A DNA stretch of 26,342 bases from an uncultured archaeon (GCA_964493715.1 CAZBPC010000044.1:1-26342); one strand, 5' to 3'; counted from the stretch's first letter, positions 5,089-26,342 are shown. Numbers and translations are program-made. Notes: a model not told the origin generated them from the letters alone.

Positions 5089-5601
5089 TTAAAAGTTGTT
5101 TGTTACAATCTCATTCGCTAATATTTCAAATGATTTGTTGACATTCGTTCCATCTTTAGCGGAGGTATTGAAGAAATATCTGGCTCCAATATCATTTCTA
5201 ATAATTTCAATTTCTTCTTTGGTGATTTCATTAATTAGGTCATTTTTATTTGCAATCAAGATAATTGGGGCTTTTTCACAATGTTCCATCAAATCAAGTT
5301 TCCAAAATTTAACAAGTTGTTCAAATGTTTTTCTTCTCGTGAGATCAGCTACCATCATCACACCATGAGCCCCATTATAATATAAATGGCGCATTTTTAT
5401 CCATCGTTCTTGACCTGCTATATCCCATAATTGCATTTTGACAGTTTCTCCCGTGTGAAGTATTAGTTTTTTAGTGAAAATATTAGTTCCAATTGTTATT
5501 CTATAATCTCTGGAGAATTTTTCGGATATAAATTGTTTAACTAAACTAGTCTTACCTACCCCAGGATCCCCTATAATTATGGTTTTGATTAAAAATGGCA
5601 T
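5089..5601 (-). CDS. Rab-like small GTPase (Ras superfamily)
   Basis: G1 GDPGVGKTS, G2 TIG, G3 WDIAGQER, G4 NKND, G5 TSAK; YYNGAHG resembles Rab YYRGA; 170 aa with no C-terminal Cys tail. Confidence 0.95.
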   Translation of the reverse strand: MPFLIKTIIIGDPGVGKTSLVKQFISEKFSRDYRITIGTNIFTKKLILHTGETVKMQLWDIAGQERWIKMRHLYYNGAHGVMMVADLTRRKTFEQLVKFWKLDLMEHCEKAPIILIANKNDLINEITKEEIEIIRNDIGARYFFNTSAKDGTNVNKSFEILANEIVTNNF

Positions 5602-8271: not shown

Positions 8272-11200
8272 ATGTCAGAATTTCGTGAAGAATTATTAGT
8301 TACAAGTATAGATAAAAAAAGAGTTATTAAAATTATTTTAGTTGCAGTTTTATTAATTGCTGCATTTGCTTTCTCAATTATATTATCTAGCTTTCTTTTT
8401 AATACACTAAGACCCTATCCAAGTGACCAACTTGCACGTGCGAAGGAAGAAACTGGCATCCAATTAACTTTACCCCCATTTCCCTACAATTTATCCGATT
8501 TCCAAAATTTGAATTTAACTCAAGACCAATTAAATAATTTACTCGATGCGTTAAAAAATATGTTTAATGGGAATATTGATAATTTGGACCTTGGGAATTT
8601 TTCTCAAAGTCAATTAGCTTTAATGGCTTCAGAAATTGAAGTATTTAGAGTTTTTAATTATACTGATTTTAATAGCATGTCTAATAAATTATGGAAATAT
8701 GAATGCTTTGATGAGTACGCTGGCGATGGATGGCAATCTACTGCCGCATCGCAAATTAACGATTTCTACACTTATGCTGATTATGGAACTTATCATTCGG
8801 ATAAAGACATTCTAAGAATTAAAATGCCCCTAACGCCTTCAATTGGCATTAATTCGATGGTCATCCCATCATTATTCCCTACGCCGTTTATAATGAATGG
8901 AAGTCTGACAGCAACAAATTTGGATAATAAATCTGTAAGTTTATATCGGGATGATTTTAATTGCACCACTGTTGATTTGAATTTTAGTTCTAATGAAGAT
9001 GTGAATATGAGTTATGACTTATTTGGATTAAATCTTCCTTCAAACAGTCAAATAAACAGTAGTGCTTTACATGCTAGCTACACTCCTTTACCGATTCAAA
9101 ATAAGTATTTACGATTGCCCCCCTCAACCCAAGCTTATTTAGGCAATAACCCTCATGTATATACTCACTTTTTAGCATTAAATAGTACCATTTCACCTAG
9201 TGATAATGCTTTTATGGTCGCAAATAAAATTAGAAATTATTTACAATTTTATTTTTCATTACCCAGTGATCCAGCTACATATACTTCGGCACCTCCTGGA
9301 AGAGATGCAGTCGATTATTTCTGTGAAACTCAAGAAGGAATGTGGGCTGATTTTGCTTCTGCATTTTGTGTGTTTGCCCGAATTTTTGGAGTTTCATGTC
9401 GTTTTGTGGATGGATTTAATTCTATAGGAATTCAGGAGATTTGGGATAATCAAGATTCCCAAAATACTTTTACTGTAAAATATAAAAACATCTATAATTG
9501 GGCAGAGATCTTTGTACCCACCGATATCAGCGGAACCGGACAATGGGTTCAAATGGATGTACTTCTTGATAGTTATGGCGTAGGAGGAAATCCTTGGAAT
9601 GATCCTTGGAGTGAAAATAACTATACTTTAACTATGAGTAGTAATTTCACAAGTGGCTACAGAAATAATCAATATGCTAATATTACTGCCACTTTAACCT
9701 TGAATAATAATCCTATTCAAGGTAGCACAGTAATTTTTACGGACCATCCAGATGATAGAAACCCAACAAATGTAATTGGTCAAGCGGTGACAAATACCAA
9801 CGGTCAAGCATCAATTTTAATCCCCATAGATAATGCCCAAACAGCAGGGATTCACGTAATTACTGGGATATATAACGCACTGGCTATTAGTACCACCAGT
9901 TATATTATATATGGAGATGTTCAATTAAATTTAATGAATGTAAATCCACAAGAAGTGAATACTTCTATAAGCACTCAAACAAACGTGCAAGGTTATATGA
10001 TAGATCCTCTCACCAATCAAAGAATTGTTGGCGCAACTGTTGAATTTTTATTGCTTAATAAAGGAACAAATGTTAGAGTAGGAGCTCCACCTTTTGATAT
10101 TACTTATGTAGATACCGATAGTAATGGAGATTTTAACGAGATAATAAATGTTGATCCTTCTGTATTAGTTGGTCAATATGATATAAGGGTTGACTTCAAT
10201 GGAAGTTTTTATGGTTATCCTCTTGCTATGGGTTTTATGAACGATTCTAGTAATATAATGGATTTTAATGTTACAAAAGGTCCAATTAAAAAAGTATGGT
10301 TTTATATTGATGATGTCCCTTCAGACATTTATATAGCGCCTACATTGAGCAGGTATTCTACAATTACCCTTAAGGCTTATGTGTTAAATGAAACTAATAG
10401 TCCCCTCGCTAATCAGAATGTAGAATTCTATGATTATAGAACGGGTAGCTTTATTAATAGTAATACTACAAATATTCAAGGATATGCGACGTATGATTAT
10501 TTTGTCGGAACTCAAGCTCTATCTGGTCCAAATTTGCTTTATGCAAAATTAGGAAATGTTTGTAATTATTCTTATTATGTTCTAAATGATGCTCCCACAA
10601 TTCACATTTTTTCAGGACCAACACCTCTCGAAATTAATCGTACTGGGGGTGGTGGTGCAACCTCATTTAATGTTGTTGGTCAAGTCACGGATACATTAGA
10701 TGGTTCAAAACCAGTAGGATACTCAACTATAACATTAAAATTATTACGTGGAGGTTCAGACTATTCTTCATATCTGCTAGCTTATGATAGTTATCCTTTC
10801 GAAACATGGAGTTCGGGGATGTTTGATCTTAATTTCGGTGTCGCTTCAGACACTCCTACAGGTAATTATACTTTAAGGATGGACTTTAATGGAAGCATCA
10901 ATTTAATGAATTATCCACATCCCTATTTATTTAATTTACCCTTTTTAAGTAATTCAACAACTTTTGATTATGAATTACAAGTCACTGCACCTGAGACACT
11001 GAAGTTTGATTTCTGGATTGATGGGTTTACTTCACATGATTATAATCAACCATCAATTAATAGAAATAGACAATTGAACTTGTCAACTTATCTCGAATGG
11101 GGCTCTAGCCCAATAGGAGATGGAGAGTTGGTTGAATTTTATGATATAACTCAAGGCCAATCAATTGGACTTGCTTCAACGACAAATGGTAGAGCTTCTT

Positions 11201-12723
11201 TAATTTATTCGACCGGGGGTCTAACAATTGCAGGACCTCACTTGATTTCCGCAAGATGGGGTTCAAATTATAATTATTCATATTTCATTCTAAACGATCA
11301 AATAAATGTCTCATTATTATCAGGACCTTCACCAAGAGAGATTTATAGGAGTGGTGCAACTCAACGCACATTCAATATTCAAGGTTCTATTATTGATGGT
11401 TCGAATGGATCTCCAATTAAATTTCCTGAAATTCATATCGCTTTATTAGATGGTACAATGACCGATGTCTCCTATTATTTATCCTCTAGTTATTTCCAAT
11501 TAGATGATACTGGAGCATTTGATCTCACAATTTCTGTAAGTAGTGGAACTCCAGCAAATAATTATACATTGAGAGTAGAATTCAATGGAGTTTTCATATA
11601 TTCCTTAACAAACAATCAATATAATGAGCATAATTTTTATATACCTACTTTAAATTTCACCGATTATAAGAATGGATATTTCCCATTGAAAGTTATTGAT
11701 CCTGATGCTGTTAGTATTTTGTTTTCAATAGATGGAACTCCTACTCGATCATTTTATGATGATTCTCATCTTCCTGACCGTTATTCACCGGGAGATCTAA
11801 TAAACTTTTCAGTTTACGTGGCTCAAAGTGGTGCCCCAGTAACTTCTGGAACAGTTGTACTTAGGGATGTATATATCGGTTCACAAATCGGGTCTCATAC
11901 GTATGTCCCAGCTAATAATGGATATCACGAATTTATTATTAATAGCTCTTTATGGCATGCGGGATTACATAGGATAGAAGTACAATGGTCAACATATTCA
12001 ACTTTTAATACAACATATATAATTATAAATAAAACAATCACCATATCCGCATATTCTTCCTCATATCATATTCAGAGAGATTTTGACGCGTTCAGTGTGT
12101 TTGGTTCTGTTCAAGATGGAACAACCAATCTCAGAGGTTTGAATATTAAAATTTTGTTATTTAATTCAAATAATGTTGATGTTTCAGGATACCTTAATTT
12201 AGCAGGGAGTCAAATAATCAATGTTTATAATGGAAATTATCAATTTAATGTGAATTTTATCTCACTCAATTGTCCACTCGGTCAATATCATTTTAGGATT
12301 GATTTTAACGGAAGTATAAACGAAGCTGGAATCTCTTTAAGTGATTACATGATTCATACTAGCAGCATCCCTGTTTCGGTAAACATAACTGCAGGAATTA
12401 CTTTAACTGGTAATTACGACACTCAGACCGTTAAAGATCAATTTTATGAAGGAGATACATTATATGCATATGGTTATTTATTATGGGATAATGGCACTGC
12501 TATAATTGGCAAAGAAGTAGTCATTACAATAAAAGATAGCTATGGAGCTACCATTACATCTGCAACAGGTTTTACTGACGGAAGTGGGTGGTTTAATATA
12601 TCAATCTCAATTGGAAACTGGCCAAATGATGCAGAAGTGTGGGTTAGTTTTGATCCTAAAGATAATTATGTTAACCCATTTTATTATTATATTGAATATA
12701 CAGAAAGAGAATTATTTAGATAA
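8272..12723 (+). CDS. Large N-terminally anchored surface glycoprotein with a degenerate transglutaminase-like domain and Ig-like repeats
   Basis: N-terminal TM (IILVAVLLIAAFAFSIIL); TgpA-like segment DAVDYFC...EGMWADFASAF...ARIFGVSCRFVDGF...YNWAEIF...GQWVQMD; beta-rich C-terminal ~1000 aa with many N-x-S/T sequons. Confidence 0.85.
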   Translation: MSEFREELLVTSIDKKRVIKIILVAVLLIAAFAFSIILSSFLFNTLRPYPSDQLARAKEETGIQLTLPPFPYNLSDFQNLNLTQDQLNNLLDALKNMFNGNIDNLDLGNFSQSQLALMASEIEVFRVFNYTDFNSMSNKLWKYECFDEYAGDGWQSTAASQINDFYTYADYGTYHSDKDILRIKMPLTPSIGINSMVIPSLFPTPFIMNGSLTATNLDNKSVSLYRDDFNCTTVDLNFSSNEDVNMSYDLFGLNLPSNSQINSSALHASYTPLPIQNKYLRLPPSTQAYLGNNPHVYTHFLALNSTISPSDNAFMVANKIRNYLQFYFSLPSDPATYTSAPPGRDAVDYFCETQEGMWADFASAFCVFARIFGVSCRFVDGFNSIGIQEIWDNQDSQNTFTVKYKNIYNWAEIFVPTDISGTGQWVQMDVLLDSYGVGGNPWNDPWSENNYTLTMSSNFTSGYRNNQYANITATLTLNNNPIQGSTVIFTDHPDDRNPTNVIGQAVTNTNGQASILIPIDNAQTAGIHVITGIYNALAISTTSYIIYGDVQLNLMNVNPQEVNTSISTQTNVQGYMIDPLTNQRIVGATVEFLLLNKGTNVRVGAPPFDITYVDTDSNGDFNEIINVDPSVLVGQYDIRVDFNGSFYGYPLAMGFMNDSSNIMDFNVTKGPIKKVWFYIDDVPSDIYIAPTLSRYSTITLKAYVLNETNSPLANQNVEFYDYRTGSFINSNTTNIQGYATYDYFVGTQALSGPNLLYAKLGNVCNYSYYVLNDAPTIHIFSGPTPLEINRTGGGGATSFNVVGQVTDTLDGSKPVGYSTITLKLLRGGSDYSSYLLAYDSYPFETWSSGMFDLNFGVASDTPTGNYTLRMDFNGSINLMNYPHPYLFNLPFLSNSTTFDYELQVTAPETLKFDFWIDGFTSHDYNQPSINRNRQLNLSTYLEWGSSPIGDGELVEFYDITQGQSIGLASTTNGRASLIYSTGGLTIAGPHLISARWGSNYNYSYFILNDQINVSLLSGPSPREIYRSGATQRTFNIQGSIIDGSNGSPIKFPEIHIALLDGTMTDVSYYLSSSYFQLDDTGAFDLTISVSSGTPANNYTLRVEFNGVFIYSLTNNQYNEHNFYIPTLNFTDYKNGYFPLKVIDPDAVSILFSIDGTPTRSFYDDSHLPDRYSPGDLINFSVYVAQSGAPVTSGTVVLRDVYIGSQIGSHTYVPANNGYHEFIINSSLWHAGLHRIEVQWSTYSTFNTTYIIINKTITISAYSSSYHIQRDFDAFSVFGSVQDGTTNLRGLNIKILLFNSNNVDVSGYLNLAGSQIINVYNGNYQFNVNFISLNCPLGQYHFRIDFNGSINEAGISLSDYMIHTSSIPVSVNITAGITLTGNYDTQTVKDQFYEGDTLYAYGYLLWDNGTAIIGKEVVITIKDSYGATITSATGFTDGSGWFNISISIGNWPNDAEVWVSFDPKDNYVNPFYYYIEYTERELFR
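9620..12400 (+). repeat. Four diverged protein-level tandem repeats of about 230-241 aa (boundaries approximate)
   Basis: The motif recurs as GQYDIRVDFNGS (10171), GNYTLRMDFNGS (10861), NNYTLRVEFNGV (11557) and GQYHFRIDFNGS (12280), spaced 230/232/241 codons. Confidence 0.75.
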
Positions 12724-16590: not shown

Positions 16591-17571
16591 ATGGAAGCTC
16601 CAAACAAAGCAAAGTATTATGAAAGAGAAGAATTGGATGTAAGTTCAATTCGATCAATAGCACAAGATGTTTTAAGTGAAGTAAGTCGCGTGATTGTTGG
16701 CAATGGAGAAATTCTTCAGCAACTTTTTATAGCTCTCCTCGTTAATGGTCATGTTCTTCTTGAAGGAGTTCCTGGTTTAGGTAAAACTGTTATGGCTAAA
16801 ACTTTCGCTAAAACATTAGGAATTTCTTTCAAGCGCGTTCAATTTACACCTGATTTATTACCTTCTGATATAACCGGTACAAAAATATTTGATCAGAATG
16901 AGGGTGCGTTTGTACTTCAGAAAGGTCCGATTTTTGCCAATGTTGTGTTAGCTGATGAAATTAATAGAAGTGCACCAAAAACTCAAGCAGCACTTCTAGA
17001 AGCCATGGCTGAACGACAAGTAACTATTGAAGGTCAAACACTTGAATTAGTGAAACCATTTATAGTCATTGCAACAGAGAACCCCGTTGAAATGGAAGGA
17101 ACTTATCCATTACCAGAAGCACAGGTTGATCGTTTCTTGTTTAAGTTATGGTTAGATTATCCTGAAATGGACGAAGAGGTAGAAATCATGAGGAGACAAA
17201 TCTCAGGCGATATGCCTTCGATAGATGTCATCACAAATGCAGAAGAACTATTAGCAGCTCAAAAAATTATGAATATGGTTTATATAGATGAAAGAATACT
17301 TAAATACGTTAGAGACATAATAATAAAAACACGAAATCATCCACAAATCGCATTAGGATGTGGACCTCGAGCCTCACTTACGATAATGAAAACAGCGAAA
17401 GCTAGAGCTGCAATCCTTGGACGCACTTATGTCACACCGGATGATGTTAGAGCTCTCATCATACCTGCCCTTAATCATCGAATATTATTAAAAGCAGAAA
17501 GTGAACTTGAAGGTTTAGATTCAAAATCTGTGCTAAGATCAATAGTGGAAGACATTCCTGTTCCAATATAA
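16591..17571 (+). CDS. moxR: MoxR-family AAA+ ATPase (MoxR-proper type)
   Basis: GHVLLEGVPGLGKT, RVQFTPDLLPSDITG, LADEINRSAPKTQAALLEAM, NPVEMEGTYPLPEAQVDRF. Confidence 0.96.
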   Translation: MEAPNKAKYYEREELDVSSIRSIAQDVLSEVSRVIVGNGEILQQLFIALLVNGHVLLEGVPGLGKTVMAKTFAKTLGISFKRVQFTPDLLPSDITGTKIFDQNEGAFVLQKGPIFANVVLADEINRSAPKTQAALLEAMAERQVTIEGQTLELVKPFIVIATENPVEMEGTYPLPEAQVDRFLFKLWLDYPEMDEEVEIMRRQISGDMPSIDVITNAEELLAAQKIMNMVYIDERILKYVRDIIIKTRNHPQIALGCGPRASLTIMKTAKARAAILGRTYVTPDDVRALIIPALNHRILLKAESELEGLDSKSVLRSIVEDIPVPI

Positions 17572-17640
17572 ATTTTTTTTTAAACAAATAAAATAGTAAA
17601 TGAAAAGCGGTAAAATTTAAAATTAAATAATGGGATATAA

Positions 17641-18969
17641 ATGCTTGGTGGAAAGGGTCGAACATTGATTATATTTGCAGTATTTTTCCTAACTGCAGGA
17701 TTTTCATTCGTAAATTATTTTTTTATTTTTTTTGCAATTCTCCTATTATTCAGTACTATTATCAGCTTACCGCTTTTTTATTGGCAAATGAATATAGAAG
17801 AATTACGAGTTCATAGAGAACTTGAAAAAGAGAAGGTATTTAAAGATGATTTTGTCCATGTTAAGGTTATCATAAAAAATATGGGAAAAAATAGTTTTGA
17901 TCTTATAGAAATTAGAGATTATTATAATCCTCAACTTTTTCGATTAATCCTTGGTGAAAATTTCATATCTACACGTATTGGTCCCAAAGGATTAATAAAA
18001 TTCTCTTATGTTCTTGAACCTAAAGTACGAGGAGAATATCCCCTTGGACCAATCTCAGTAACTGTTAAGGATCGATTAGGGTTTAATTCTGTTGAAAGAG
18101 TAATCCCTAATAGTGTTTCAGATATTTTAATATATCCTCCTTATGAAGATATAAAAAGAATCGAAATTCTTGGGTCTAAACGATCTCTTCAGTTAAATTA
18201 TGGTTTACAAAGATCTAAACAAATAGGTCTTGGATCAGAATTTCATGGAATGAGAAAATATGTTTTTGGGGATCAGTTTCGATTAATTGATTGGAAGGCA
18301 AGTGCACGGACTCAGCAATTAGTAGTAAGGGAATTTGAAAGTGAACGAGATATAACTGTTATGATTTTAGTGGATTCATCTAATAGCATGGCCGGGGGTG
18401 CGATTGAGAACACAAAATTCGAATATGCAATTCGAGCATGCATGTTACTAACCAAAGTGGCTCTCACACGAAGAGATAGTGTAGGAATATTTTCATATTC
18501 AGATAAGAAGAATCTACAATTCCTAAAACCACAAAGTGGAGATGATCATTTTTATAAAGTCCTGGATTTTGTTGCTAGAATAAAACCTCAAGGAAAGAGT
18601 AGAATTGTTGAAGCCATGGATTACTTCGTTAGACGTTTTCAAAAGAGGAGTTTAATATTTATAATATCAGATTTAGAAGGAAATGTGAAAGAAATATCAC
18701 AAGCATTGAAAAAACTTGTTACATTTAACCATTCAATTATAGTAATTAATCCTTTTAGTCCTTGGTTCGAAATTCATGAAATTGATTTATCATCTACTGA
18801 CAAAGCATTAGCTGAAGCAATTAGTGAGGAAATGATGGAACATATACTACTCCTTAAAAGGGATTTTCGCAATTTAGGAATTAACCTCATCACGACGGGA
18901 CCAGATGAAATGATGGCAAATGTACTAAAAACCTATATGGAAGCAAAGAAAAAAGGGAGTGCTTATTAA
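17641..18969 (+). CDS. DUF58 protein with vWA domain (MoxR partner)
   Basis: Two N-terminal TMs, RGEYPLGP...DRLG, GSEFHGMRKYVFGDQFRLIDWKASAR, VREFE, MIDAS-like DSSNSM, IISD. Confidence 0.92.
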   Translation: MLGGKGRTLIIFAVFFLTAGFSFVNYFFIFFAILLLFSTIISLPLFYWQMNIEELRVHRELEKEKVFKDDFVHVKVIIKNMGKNSFDLIEIRDYYNPQLFRLILGENFISTRIGPKGLIKFSYVLEPKVRGEYPLGPISVTVKDRLGFNSVERVIPNSVSDILIYPPYEDIKRIEILGSKRSLQLNYGLQRSKQIGLGSEFHGMRKYVFGDQFRLIDWKASARTQQLVVREFESERDITVMILVDSSNSMAGGAIENTKFEYAIRACMLLTKVALTRRDSVGIFSYSDKKNLQFLKPQSGDDHFYKVLDFVARIKPQGKSRIVEAMDYFVRRFQKRSLIFIISDLEGNVKEISQALKKLVTFNHSIIVINPFSPWFEIHEIDLSSTDKALAEAISEEMMEHILLLKRDFRNLGINLITTGPDEMMANVLKTYMEAKKKGSAY

Positions 18970-18972
18970 AAA

Positions 18973-20409
18973 ATGGTGCGATATTACTTATTAGGATTAA
19001 AAATAATTAAAGTTTTCATATATATTTGGATTTTGGTAATATTTTTCTCCGTTTTTCATATTGACGAGGTTTTAACGACTGATAGCGGAGAATTAGTTAT
19101 AGATGCCTTTATTAAAGGAATAAGGAACATAGTAACCTATGCTTTCTTTGGAGTTGTGTATGTTTTGGCATTAGGAAGTATTCAGATGACTTCCTTTATG
19201 TTTACACCAAACCCACAATTTATGTTTAACTTTCTTGATAATTTCATGCGTAATTATTTTGGATTATGGTTTAACTTTCCTAACGGTACTGTTCCTGAGT
19301 TAACAGAAATTCCAAATCTCATATGGACAGAAATCTCTGTATTTACTGGAGATTTTTATTTATTTACTTTCCAAATTCTGTTATTTATCTCAATAATTTA
19401 TTCTATCAGAGCATTTCTCCAAACAAATCCGAAACACGATATGCTAGTTATTGGTTCTCTAATACTCATGATTGTTGTTCCTCTCATGATATTTGGATAT
19501 AATGATATGCTAGCCCTTTTTAACATTAACGATCCATACATCAGTTCGCTTCCTGATCCCTTGGATCCAGCGTTTTCAGTGATTCCTATAACTAATTTTT
19601 TTAAGTTTTTAGCTAGTCCTGTTATATCATTAGCTATAGTTTCATATATTTATTTAGAATTAGCATTTCAAATTAATTATATTGACACAGTTTCTAAACC
19701 ATCCTTGGAAAGACGAGAAAGGCTTGAGGCTCAGCTAGAAATTCTTCAAAGTGAATCTCATTTTGTTGTAGCAAATATCGACAAGATAAAAGAGGAAGCT
19801 AAGGCACGAAAAGAAGAAATTGAAAAAGAAGGAAAAACTAATATTAATAAATTTCTCTTAAAAATGGAAGAAAGATTTTCCTACGTAAAAGAAATGATTG
19901 AAAAAAAAAAGTTGGAGGAAGAAGAGAAGAGATTAATTACTGCTGCTTCTAAAACAAGAAGATTAGGTGCATACGTAGATAGATTATTCAAGGAAGATCC
20001 AGAAGCTCGTGATACACTTACAGCAAGGACTTCGTCCCCTAAATCACAAAGCTTAGCCCTTTCAACATTAATCAACTTTTTTTCGCGTATTATCATTTTA
20101 GTCTTAGTAAGTTTCGTTGTAATACAACCTCACTGGTTTGCTCAGAATGTTTTCAACTTACCACCCGCAATTACAGAAAGTGTGGCAATGTATTCCCCAG
20201 AAGTAATTTTAGTTCTTTTATTACCAATTGTATCTATATTTCCAGCCATCTCAAAAATTATCTCTTACATAAAACATAGAAATTTAATTATAAATCTGCA
20301 ACAAGAAGGTAGAATTAAAGAAATATTGGCTTCTGTAGGAGATTATGTGAGAAAAGAAGAAATCACTGAAAGCGTCAAAATAGAAGACCCTGTAGCTGAA
20401 TCATCCTAA
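18973..20409 (+). CDS. Uncharacterised polytopic membrane protein with a cytoplasmic coiled coil
   Basis: About 7 hydrophobic segments with a long E/K/R-rich helical loop (LERRERLEAQLE...KKKLEEEEKRL); starts 3 nt after the DUF58 stop. Confidence 0.8.
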   Translation: MVRYYLLGLKIIKVFIYIWILVIFFSVFHIDEVLTTDSGELVIDAFIKGIRNIVTYAFFGVVYVLALGSIQMTSFMFTPNPQFMFNFLDNFMRNYFGLWFNFPNGTVPELTEIPNLIWTEISVFTGDFYLFTFQILLFISIIYSIRAFLQTNPKHDMLVIGSLILMIVVPLMIFGYNDMLALFNINDPYISSLPDPLDPAFSVIPITNFFKFLASPVISLAIVSYIYLELAFQINYIDTVSKPSLERRERLEAQLEILQSESHFVVANIDKIKEEAKARKEEIEKEGKTNINKFLLKMEERFSYVKEMIEKKKLEEEEKRLITAASKTRRLGAYVDRLFKEDPEARDTLTARTSSPKSQSLALSTLINFFSRIIILVLVSFVVIQPHWFAQNVFNLPPAITESVAMYSPEVILVLLLPIVSIFPAISKIISYIKHRNLIINLQQEGRIKEILASVGDYVRKEEITESVKIEDPVAESS

Positions 20410-25789: not shown

Positions 25790-26342
25790 ATGACAGATTA
25801 TAATCATAAATTAATTGAGAAGAAATGGCAAGATAAATGGGAAAAAGAACAAATTTTCGAAGTTAATGAAGATCCAAATAAACAAAAATATTATGTTTTG
25901 GAGATGTATCCGTATCCTTCTGGAAGCTTGCATATGGGACATCTTCGTAATTACACAATAGGAGATTCTTTAGCTAGATTTAAGCGAATGGGCGGGTATA
26001 ATGTATTATATCCTATGGGTTATGACTGTATTTCTCAATAAGGGAAATGCCATAAAAGCTTTGGATTACCCGCAGAAAACGCTGCTATAGATCACGGTGC
26101 CAATCCCAATGAGTGGACCGATAAAAATATCCTTTTAATGAAAGAACAACAAAAACGAATTGGATTGTCCTATGATTGGACTCGCATGATATATAGCCAT
26201 GATTCTAATTATTATCGTTGGGATCAGTGGTTCTTTATCAAGATGTTTGAAAAAGGATTAGCTTATCGTCAAGAATCTTATGTTAACTGGTGTCCAAAAT
26301 GTGCGACAGTACTAGCTAACGAGCAAGTGTTAAATGGTAACT
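25790..26342 (+). CDS. leuS: Leucyl-tRNA synthetase, bacterial type; exon 1 25790-26026, exon 2 26057 to beyond the window end
   Basis: ATG 25790 gives [14 protein letters not shown]..., [23 protein letters not shown] (HIGH motif), PMGYD. After a 30-nt insert the same frame continues [11 protein letters not shown]...IGLSYDWTR...YYRWDQWFF...KGLAY...[16 protein letters not shown]. Confidence 0.95.
26027..26056 (+). other. Putative 30-nt bulge-helix-bulge (BHB) mRNA intron in leuS
   Basis: Insert TGTATTTCTCAATAAGGGAAATGCCATAAA with in-frame TAA at 26039-26041. 4-bp central helix TATG(26021-24)/CATA(26051-54); 3-nt bulges AC^T (26025-27) and AA^A (26055-57); 9-bp intron stem GTATTTCTC/GGGAAATGC. 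Canonical cleavage joins GAC to AGC. Confidence 0.88.

Follow-up and report, generated by a model that had tools for sequence, protein, structure and literature searches.

The cbf5 pre-mRNA of Crenarchaeota reportedly contains a BHB intron, a finding credited to Watanabe in 2002. According to the available text of PMC7714728, besides the case in the 5'UTR of HVO_1309, only crenarchaeal cbf5 was known to carry an mRNA BHB intron as of 2020, and the accessible part of a second report describes the distribution of the cbf5 intron as patchy, with lineage-specific gain and loss (Yokobori 2009, PMC2738675). The literature that we searched contained no published account of a BHB intron inside a protein-coding gene of Asgard archaea. 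Here we analysed a 30-nt insert in a leuS gene and found that it argues, with a probability that we put at roughly 0.86, for a genuinely spliced BHB intron at 26027-26056 within coding sequence; from the sequence we infer that the insert is cleaved out and the exons are ligated in vivo.

The leuS locus and its insert

The window, that is the whole stretch of 26,342 nt that was analysed, is contig C44 of genome G000 (3.68 Mb, 160 contigs, 31% G+C). The features of leuS and of its insert are as follows.

25790..26026, + strand: leuS (bacterial-type LeuRS) exon 1, 79 codons from the ATG at 25790, ending in ...PMGYD; relatives align over residues 1-79
26057..26342, + strand: leuS exon 2, first 95 codons (SFGLPAEN...), running off the window onto contig C45; 847 codons overall
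26027..26056, + strand: predicted BHB intron, 30 nt (sequence, fold, relatives), with an in-frame TAA at 26039-26041; about 95% of pair cells paired, versus 36-53% for slid partners
26017..26020, + strand: outer (exon-exon) helix, 5' strand GGGU, pairing with 26058-26061
26058..26061, + strand: outer helix, 3' strand GCUU, in exon 2 (sequence, 8-sequence alignment)
26021..26024, + strand: central 4-bp helix, 5' strand UAUG, in the exon, pairing with 26051-26054
26051..26054, + strand: central 4-bp helix, 3' strand CAUA, in the predicted intron (sequence, fold, 8-sequence alignment)
26025..26027, + strand: 5' bulge ACU, predicted cut 26026^26027
26055..26057, + strand: 3' bulge AAA, predicted cut 26056^26057
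26028..26050, + strand: intron hairpin, 9-bp stem 26028-36/26042-50 (2 G-U), loop AAUAA 26037-41

After ...PMGYD, the unspliced frame reads CISQ, meets the stop TAA at 26039-41, continues with GKCHK and then resumes unchanged. Exon 1 matches PF00133 (profile 1-70) and PF09334 (profile 3-46), and the PF09334 match is taken up again in exon 2 at profile positions 48-135, leaving 46|48 over the junction. The last 55 bases of the window (26288-26342) are identical to G000:C45:1-55, and the assembly breaks within leuS; the frame stays open across this overlap, exon 2 extends over its 847 codons to the stop, and the sole premature stop of the whole gene is the TAA inside the insert. The part on C45 alone scored 733.2 bits against TIGR00396 (leuS_bact), above the cut-off of 548.4, and 169.9 bits against the archaeal model TIGR00395, under the cut-off of 648.5. 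A separate contig bears an intact archaeal-type LeuRS (G000:C19:38975-41839, + strand, 934-935 bits against TIGR00395). Judged by these profile scores, the interrupted gene is a bacterial-type LeuRS, paralogous to the archaeal-type LeuRS of the same genome; this corrects the earlier note, whose leuS is the second, bacterial-type paralog (TIGR00396), with the archaeal-type enzyme encoded elsewhere. Because this intact enzyme is present, the pseudogene alternative for the interrupted paralog deserved a real test. The two types of LeuRS genes, one interrupted and the other intact, coexist in this genome. A 918-aa open reading frame on C73 with a weak LeuRS match was rejected, since profile search gives ValRS.

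At 70-89% identity, the closest named relatives of the protein come from Promethearchaeota/Promethearchaeia MAGs; next are MAGs labelled Hodarchaeota and Thorarchaeota (74-75%), and after them bacteria and DPANN archaea (52-59%). Further genes of the window code for MCM, a Ras-family GTPase, a histone deacetylase and F420 biosynthesis proteins. Because of these Promethearchaeota relatives together with the gene content, the earlier assignment to a probable Asgard archaeon stands, the host being a Lokiarchaeal (Promethearchaeia) member of that group. The Ras-family small GTPase is located at 5092-5601 (- strand). Other genes of the window are a 1483-aa transglutaminase-like/Ig-domain protein at 8272-12720 (+ strand) and a MoxR AAA - DUF58/VWA gene cluster at 16591-20406 (+ strand), followed by a 478-aa open reading frame without Pfam match. 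Rfam gave no gathering-score match anywhere within the window.

By checking the insert base for base, we found every coordinate of the sequence and pairing given in the earlier note to be correct. Two 3-nt bulges lie on opposite strands with a 4-bp helix between them, each bulge 3' of its helix strand, and further helices flank this element on both sides (hBHBh'), the inner one being the 9-bp stem and the outer one a 4-bp helix. With its three G-U pairs, the outer helix of this genome is weak, and its closing pair is C-G in five of eight sequences. The minimum-energy fold from RNAfold shows the 5' bulge together with the central helix and the inner stem; in energy, the fold of the leuS insert is unremarkable (z = -1.23, with 22 of 200 shuffles folding equally well). 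The rule that EndA cuts after the second bulge nucleotide finds support in the available text of PMC12397907, which describes an ARMAN-2 EndA-RNA structure where the A14-A15 bond is cleaved and A15 is the third bulged nucleotide. Cuts at these places remove exactly the 30-nt insert and give ...PMGYD|SFGLPAE..., as in intronless orthologs. The excision boundary required by homology is unique and equals the BHB cut sites, and the agreement between cuts and protein conservation claimed earlier was borne out, with orthologs contiguous at the predicted splice and PF09334 divided 46|48. Only two metatranscriptome runs were found to share any words with the stretch (0.06 and 0.04), and their contigs leave 25841-26174 uncovered: X1 covers only 25806-25840 and 26175-26342 of the window, X2 covers none of it, and neither contains joints.

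Conservation of the insert among relatives

Bacterial-type leuS was found in 59 of the 60 related genomes searched, and 29 loci from relatives were examined, 28 of them belonging to the genus of this genome and the remaining one to its class. Exons 1 and 2 abut without a gap in 23 of the 29, and the six printed read LYPMGYDS(F/Y)GLPAE. The other six carry an insert at the identical codon boundary, 30 nt long in five and 29 nt in one, and two of 12 named public loci also have it (L037, 30 nt; L043, 31 nt); the insert of L037 is identical to that of G006, and L037 and G006 may be the same organism. The BHB cut rule restores G-Y-D|S-F-G in every 29-, 30- and 31-nt version. Since 29 or 31 nt would shift the frame, neither an in-frame peptide insertion nor read-through is possible for inserts of these lengths; additionally, the stops within the copies vary among TAA, TGA and TAG.

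Exon 2 has exactly 847 codons here, in complete intronless genes and in all but one of the six intron-bearing relatives; in the exception, G009, it ends after 54 codons because a second insert is present there. The dN/dS values are 0.05-0.11 for the intron-bearing leuS genes versus 0.05-0.115 for intronless pairs. Intron-bearing pairs differ at 31-81% of their synonymous sites, with saturation in the deeper pairs, and only 1-6 of the 30 insert positions differ across the same lineages. The low dN/dS and the few insert differences show that host gene and insert are both under constraint, with strongly purifying selection on the gene. A LeuRS tree of 29 rows, from which L026 was left out, requires at least three gains or losses to account for the genes that bear the intron.

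In the alignment of eight sequences, 94.8% of pair cells are paired, compared with 36-51% for slid partners. None of the eight departs from the central helix, the outer helix has 100% of its cells paired and the inner 9-bp stem 90%, with the stem pair at columns 31/39 unpaired in four of the eight. Two apical stem pairs show changes in both partners when L043 is counted in, and among the seven genus sequences the leuS insert shows no double compensatory changes. The covariation is weak, since the level reached with L043 was also reached by 33-35 of 500 shuffles.

The same design in other genes and the splicing machinery

As a further correction to the earlier note, the intron is one of a class: the same design occurs in rtcB, nadE, a VWA gene and a thiolase-like gene. 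The four inserts are listed below.

G000:C2:12136-12164, - strand: rtcB insert, 29 nt, between ...ISPGGVGY and DINCGVRL; PF01139 47|48
G000:C39:8748-8777, + strand: nadE insert, 30 nt; PF02540 profile 143|144
G000:C28:34412-34441, + strand: VWA/CoxE-like gene insert, 30 nt, from alignment to a 410-aa homolog
G000:C145:299-328, - strand: thiolase-like gene insert, 30 nt; exons abut (gap 0) in 13 of 13 relatives' loci

The interrupted rtcB, which is the only RtcB-family match in the genome, matches PF01139 with 484.5 + 54.2 bits, and the match falls into two pieces of the profile, 1-47 and 48-426. Its insert folds into a UUGG/CCAA helix and a 9-bp stem closed by a 4-nt loop, the bulges being AUA and AGA, and the BHB cut rule takes out exactly 29 nt and restores the frame. 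Searching 46 genomes gave 43 with an rtcB match, of which 36 are uninterrupted over 1-426 and five are fragmentary; a split at 47|48 occurs only in this genome and in G001. The inserts of these two differ by one bulge base, and the flanking codons show many synonymous changes.

For nadE, a 735-nt match with one internal stop was seen in this genome and in G016 among the 36 genomes searched; the two inserts occupy the same site, have the GGUG/CACU helix in common and are two compensatory stem changes apart. A second NAD-synthase homolog is located at G000:C68:17967-18698. At G023:C10:16510-17370 and G007:C23:12387-13241, a single open frame of ~305 aa encodes an NAD-synthase paralog whose profile match falls into two pieces (about 3-88 and 91/102-242); this looks like an in-frame insertion, not an intron. 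In the VWA gene, exon 1 corresponds to residues 1-312 and exon 2 to residues 314-395 of the 410-aa homolog, and the split codon is residue 313; five of the best 120 homologs listed are 314-aa calls, compared with the 410-aa full-length proteins. The thiolase-like gene has shorter open frames (334-335 aa) in G015, G028 and G031, which might mean the same insert.

A second 30-nt insert is found in leuS of G009 (L026, G009:C316), 54 codons downstream of the first, and its removal restores YYK|WDQWFF. This insert, which is independent of the first, combines a CUAU/AUAG helix with the bulges AAA and AGA and a 10-bp stem carrying one mismatch. All these mini inserts measure 29-31 nt, and both bulges start with A. 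Judged from sequence and homology, at least four further protein genes of this genome (rtcB, nadE, VWA and thiolase-like) are repaired exactly by the same cut rule. The classical host of such introns, cbf5, is uninterrupted in this genome.

Genome-wide scans set the real BHB geometry against a mirror decoy. The BHB motif alone was not enriched in the genome (247797 real versus 247548 decoy raw matches), nor were compact hairpin BHBs without an ORF condition (276 versus 272 decoy at >=9 pairs). A simple ORF-fusion scan, swamped by gene junctions, returned 1193 real versus 1240 decoy matches, and a relaxed hairpin ORF-fusion scan at >=7 pairs returned 22 versus 18, that is noise. When a compact hairpin (inner stem >=7 bp) had to repair a broken long frame, four real matches stood against no decoy, and three of the four have L = 29-30 nt and a 9-bp stem. 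The signal is the BHB motif combined with exact frame repair, not the motif alone. Two candidates were rejected as false: C7:21613-21643, which would join a 2-hydroxyacid dehydrogenase to a metallo-beta-lactamase-fold gene, and C21:20733-20761, which lies inside an AcnX gene that reads on uninterrupted in a different frame. Other ORF-fusing BHB candidates are C129:2124-2151 (-), C38:28074-28097 (+) and C18:18385-18418 (+); with the thresholds that yielded them the decoy rate is similar, and most of them may be due to chance.

The genome encodes two PF01974 EndA homologs, on C5 and C58. The C5 protein aligns best with 3p1z_B of A. pernix and keeps the Tyr/His/Lys positions, the triad named in the available text of PMC12397907; the C58 protein aligns best with M. 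jannaschii EndA and has Ala at the His position. By these residues, C5 EndA would be catalytic-like and C58 EndA structural-like. Asgard archaea are reported to have a broad-specificity (alpha-beta)2 EndA (PMC5829648, in the part available), and on sequence the two homologs fit such an enzyme. Aragorn called 27 tRNAs, 12 of them with introns, of which several are at non-canonical positions and several are 29-30 nt long; many further tRNA genes were probably missed because they are interrupted. The intron boundaries from aragorn are too imprecise for sequence comparison of tRNA and mRNA introns. With a sole RtcB and introns in 12 of 27 tRNAs, the cell cannot do without a functional ligase. This speaks for removal of the rtcB insert and, by the same reasoning, of the leuS insert; a dead rtcB is implausible. 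Because rtcB is itself interrupted, the ligation capacity depends on the very process that we infer.

Proposed mechanism, alternatives and known counterparts

In the proposed mechanism, the exon UAUG of the pre-mRNA would pair with the intron CAUA, so that two 3-nt bulges flank this helix and the remaining intron forms the 9-bp hairpin. A heteromeric EndA, composed of the catalytic-like C5 and the structural-like C58 proteins, would cut at 26026^26027 and 26056^26057, and RtcB would then join the exons into ...PMGYD|SFGLPAE..., the 30-nt intron being released, probably as a circle. The pre-mRNA intron proposed in the earlier note is supported by the intronless orthologs, the 29-, 30- and 31-nt versions, the purifying selection, the presence of EndA and RtcB, and the four additional genes.

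A small hairpin insert could instead have knocked out a dispensable second LeuRS, with the archaeal-type enzyme doing the work. The absence of the insert from 23 of 29 relatives would suit such an inactivating insertion, and the intact archaeal-type LeuRS (TIGR00395, 934 bits) may make the bacterial-type gene dispensable, so that on this argument alone a loss of function would be conceivable. However, the 847 codons are intact here and in five of six intron-bearing relatives with no relaxed selection, dN/dS of 0.05-0.11 equals that of intronless genes despite saturated synonymous sites, the insert evolves far slower than synonymous sites, and the same kind of insert sits in the single-copy rtcB, so that a pseudogene is strongly disfavoured. 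The earlier note had counted a decayed leuS beside another intact one as evidence against its reading; an intact archaeal-type LeuRS does exist, but the interrupted gene is not decayed, as seen from its 847 codons and low dN/dS. Programmed bypass of the type seen in phage T4 gene 60 involves matching take-off and landing codons around the gap. A stop soon after the break and inside a hairpin is superficially like that case, and ribosomes might skip the insert or read through it with no splicing of the RNA involved; yet here GAC precedes the insert and AAA/AGC stand at its end, with no matching codons, the stops (TAA, TGA, TAG) and the lengths (29, 30, 31 nt) differ among copies, and such recoding would leave unexplained the 4-bp helix and the two-bulge geometry, whereas the BHB rule predicts all boundaries. 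We regard it as very improbable. In a MAG of 160 contigs with leuS split over two of them, an assembly or sequencing artefact comes to mind, but six more genomes among the 29 examined, and named public MAGs as well, carry the homologous insert at the same site, and this recurrence in independent assemblies refutes it, leaving it a next to negligible chance.

EndA may also cut while ligation is inefficient or regulated, in which case the insert would mainly gate the output of LeuRS (and of RtcB and NadE). Such conditional processing agrees with the conservation of the leuS BHB, with rtcB itself being among the hosts, and with the 5'UTR BHB intron of Haloferax HVO_1309, which is reported to matter for expression (PMC7714728, available text). 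It is nonetheless unlikely as the main role, since purifying selection on the downstream 847 codons means that a substantial fraction of the transcripts must be joined and translated.

The mechanism itself is already known from cbf5 and from the HVO_1309 5'UTR, while nothing in the literature searched reports these hosts, this lineage, such multiplicity or the uniform mini size. We lean towards a uniform class of 29-31-nt BHB mini-introns that are gained and lost in protein genes of a Lokiarchaeal genus, with an aminoacyl-tRNA synthetase, NAD synthetase and rtcB among the hosts. If this is true, EndA/RtcB splicing of mRNA would be an everyday step of gene expression in prokaryotes closely related to eukaryotes, and it would occur in the lineage that matters most for how eukaryotic gene structure arose. 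Making RtcB would then be self-referential, needing pre-existing RtcB, because the mRNA of the ligase needs the ligase. Standard annotation would systematically truncate such genes, and pipelines would call them pseudogenes or fragments, the truncated VWA calls being an example. Five interrupted coding sequences in one Asgard genome, polymorphic between species, would make a curiosity into a recurring feature. The mini-intron class would also be natural material for the question of how BHB introns arrive, which a recent preprint on Asgard tRNA introns leaves open in its available text.

Short mRNA introns also exist in eukaryotes, and HAC1/XBP1 splicing includes an RtcB-type sealing step. As described in the available text of PMC13149111, a short mRNA intron is excised there without the spliceosome, like the one proposed here; the endonuclease is IRE1, which recognises stem-loops, whereas here EndA would act on a BHB, and no homology of the introns is implied. 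Compared with the tRNA introns of Asgard archaea in the available text of the preprint, the leuS insert has the same motif, the same enzymes and repeated gains, and several tRNA introns of this genome also measure 29-30 nt; the difference is that the host here is an mRNA coding sequence, and the main text of that preprint, supplements apart, contains 0 occurrences of mRNA, RtcB or synthetase. The HVO_1309 5'UTR intron of Haloferax volcanii is likewise an mRNA substrate of the tRNA splicing endonuclease according to the available text of PMC7714728, but its place is a 5'UTR and it has been demonstrated both in vivo and in vitro, whereas the predicted leuS intron breaks a reading frame. A close counterpart is crenarchaeal cbf5, which, in the accessible part of PMC2738675, has a BHB intron within protein-coding sequence. 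A hetero-oligomeric EndA presumably cuts this intron out before the ends are ligated, and its gain and loss resemble the picture for leuS. Unlike the cbf5 system, the hosts here are leuS, rtcB, nadE, VWA and thiolase-like genes, the lineage is Asgard, several hosts occur per genome, and the introns, with their splicing predicted from sequence, have a uniform size of 29-31 nt.
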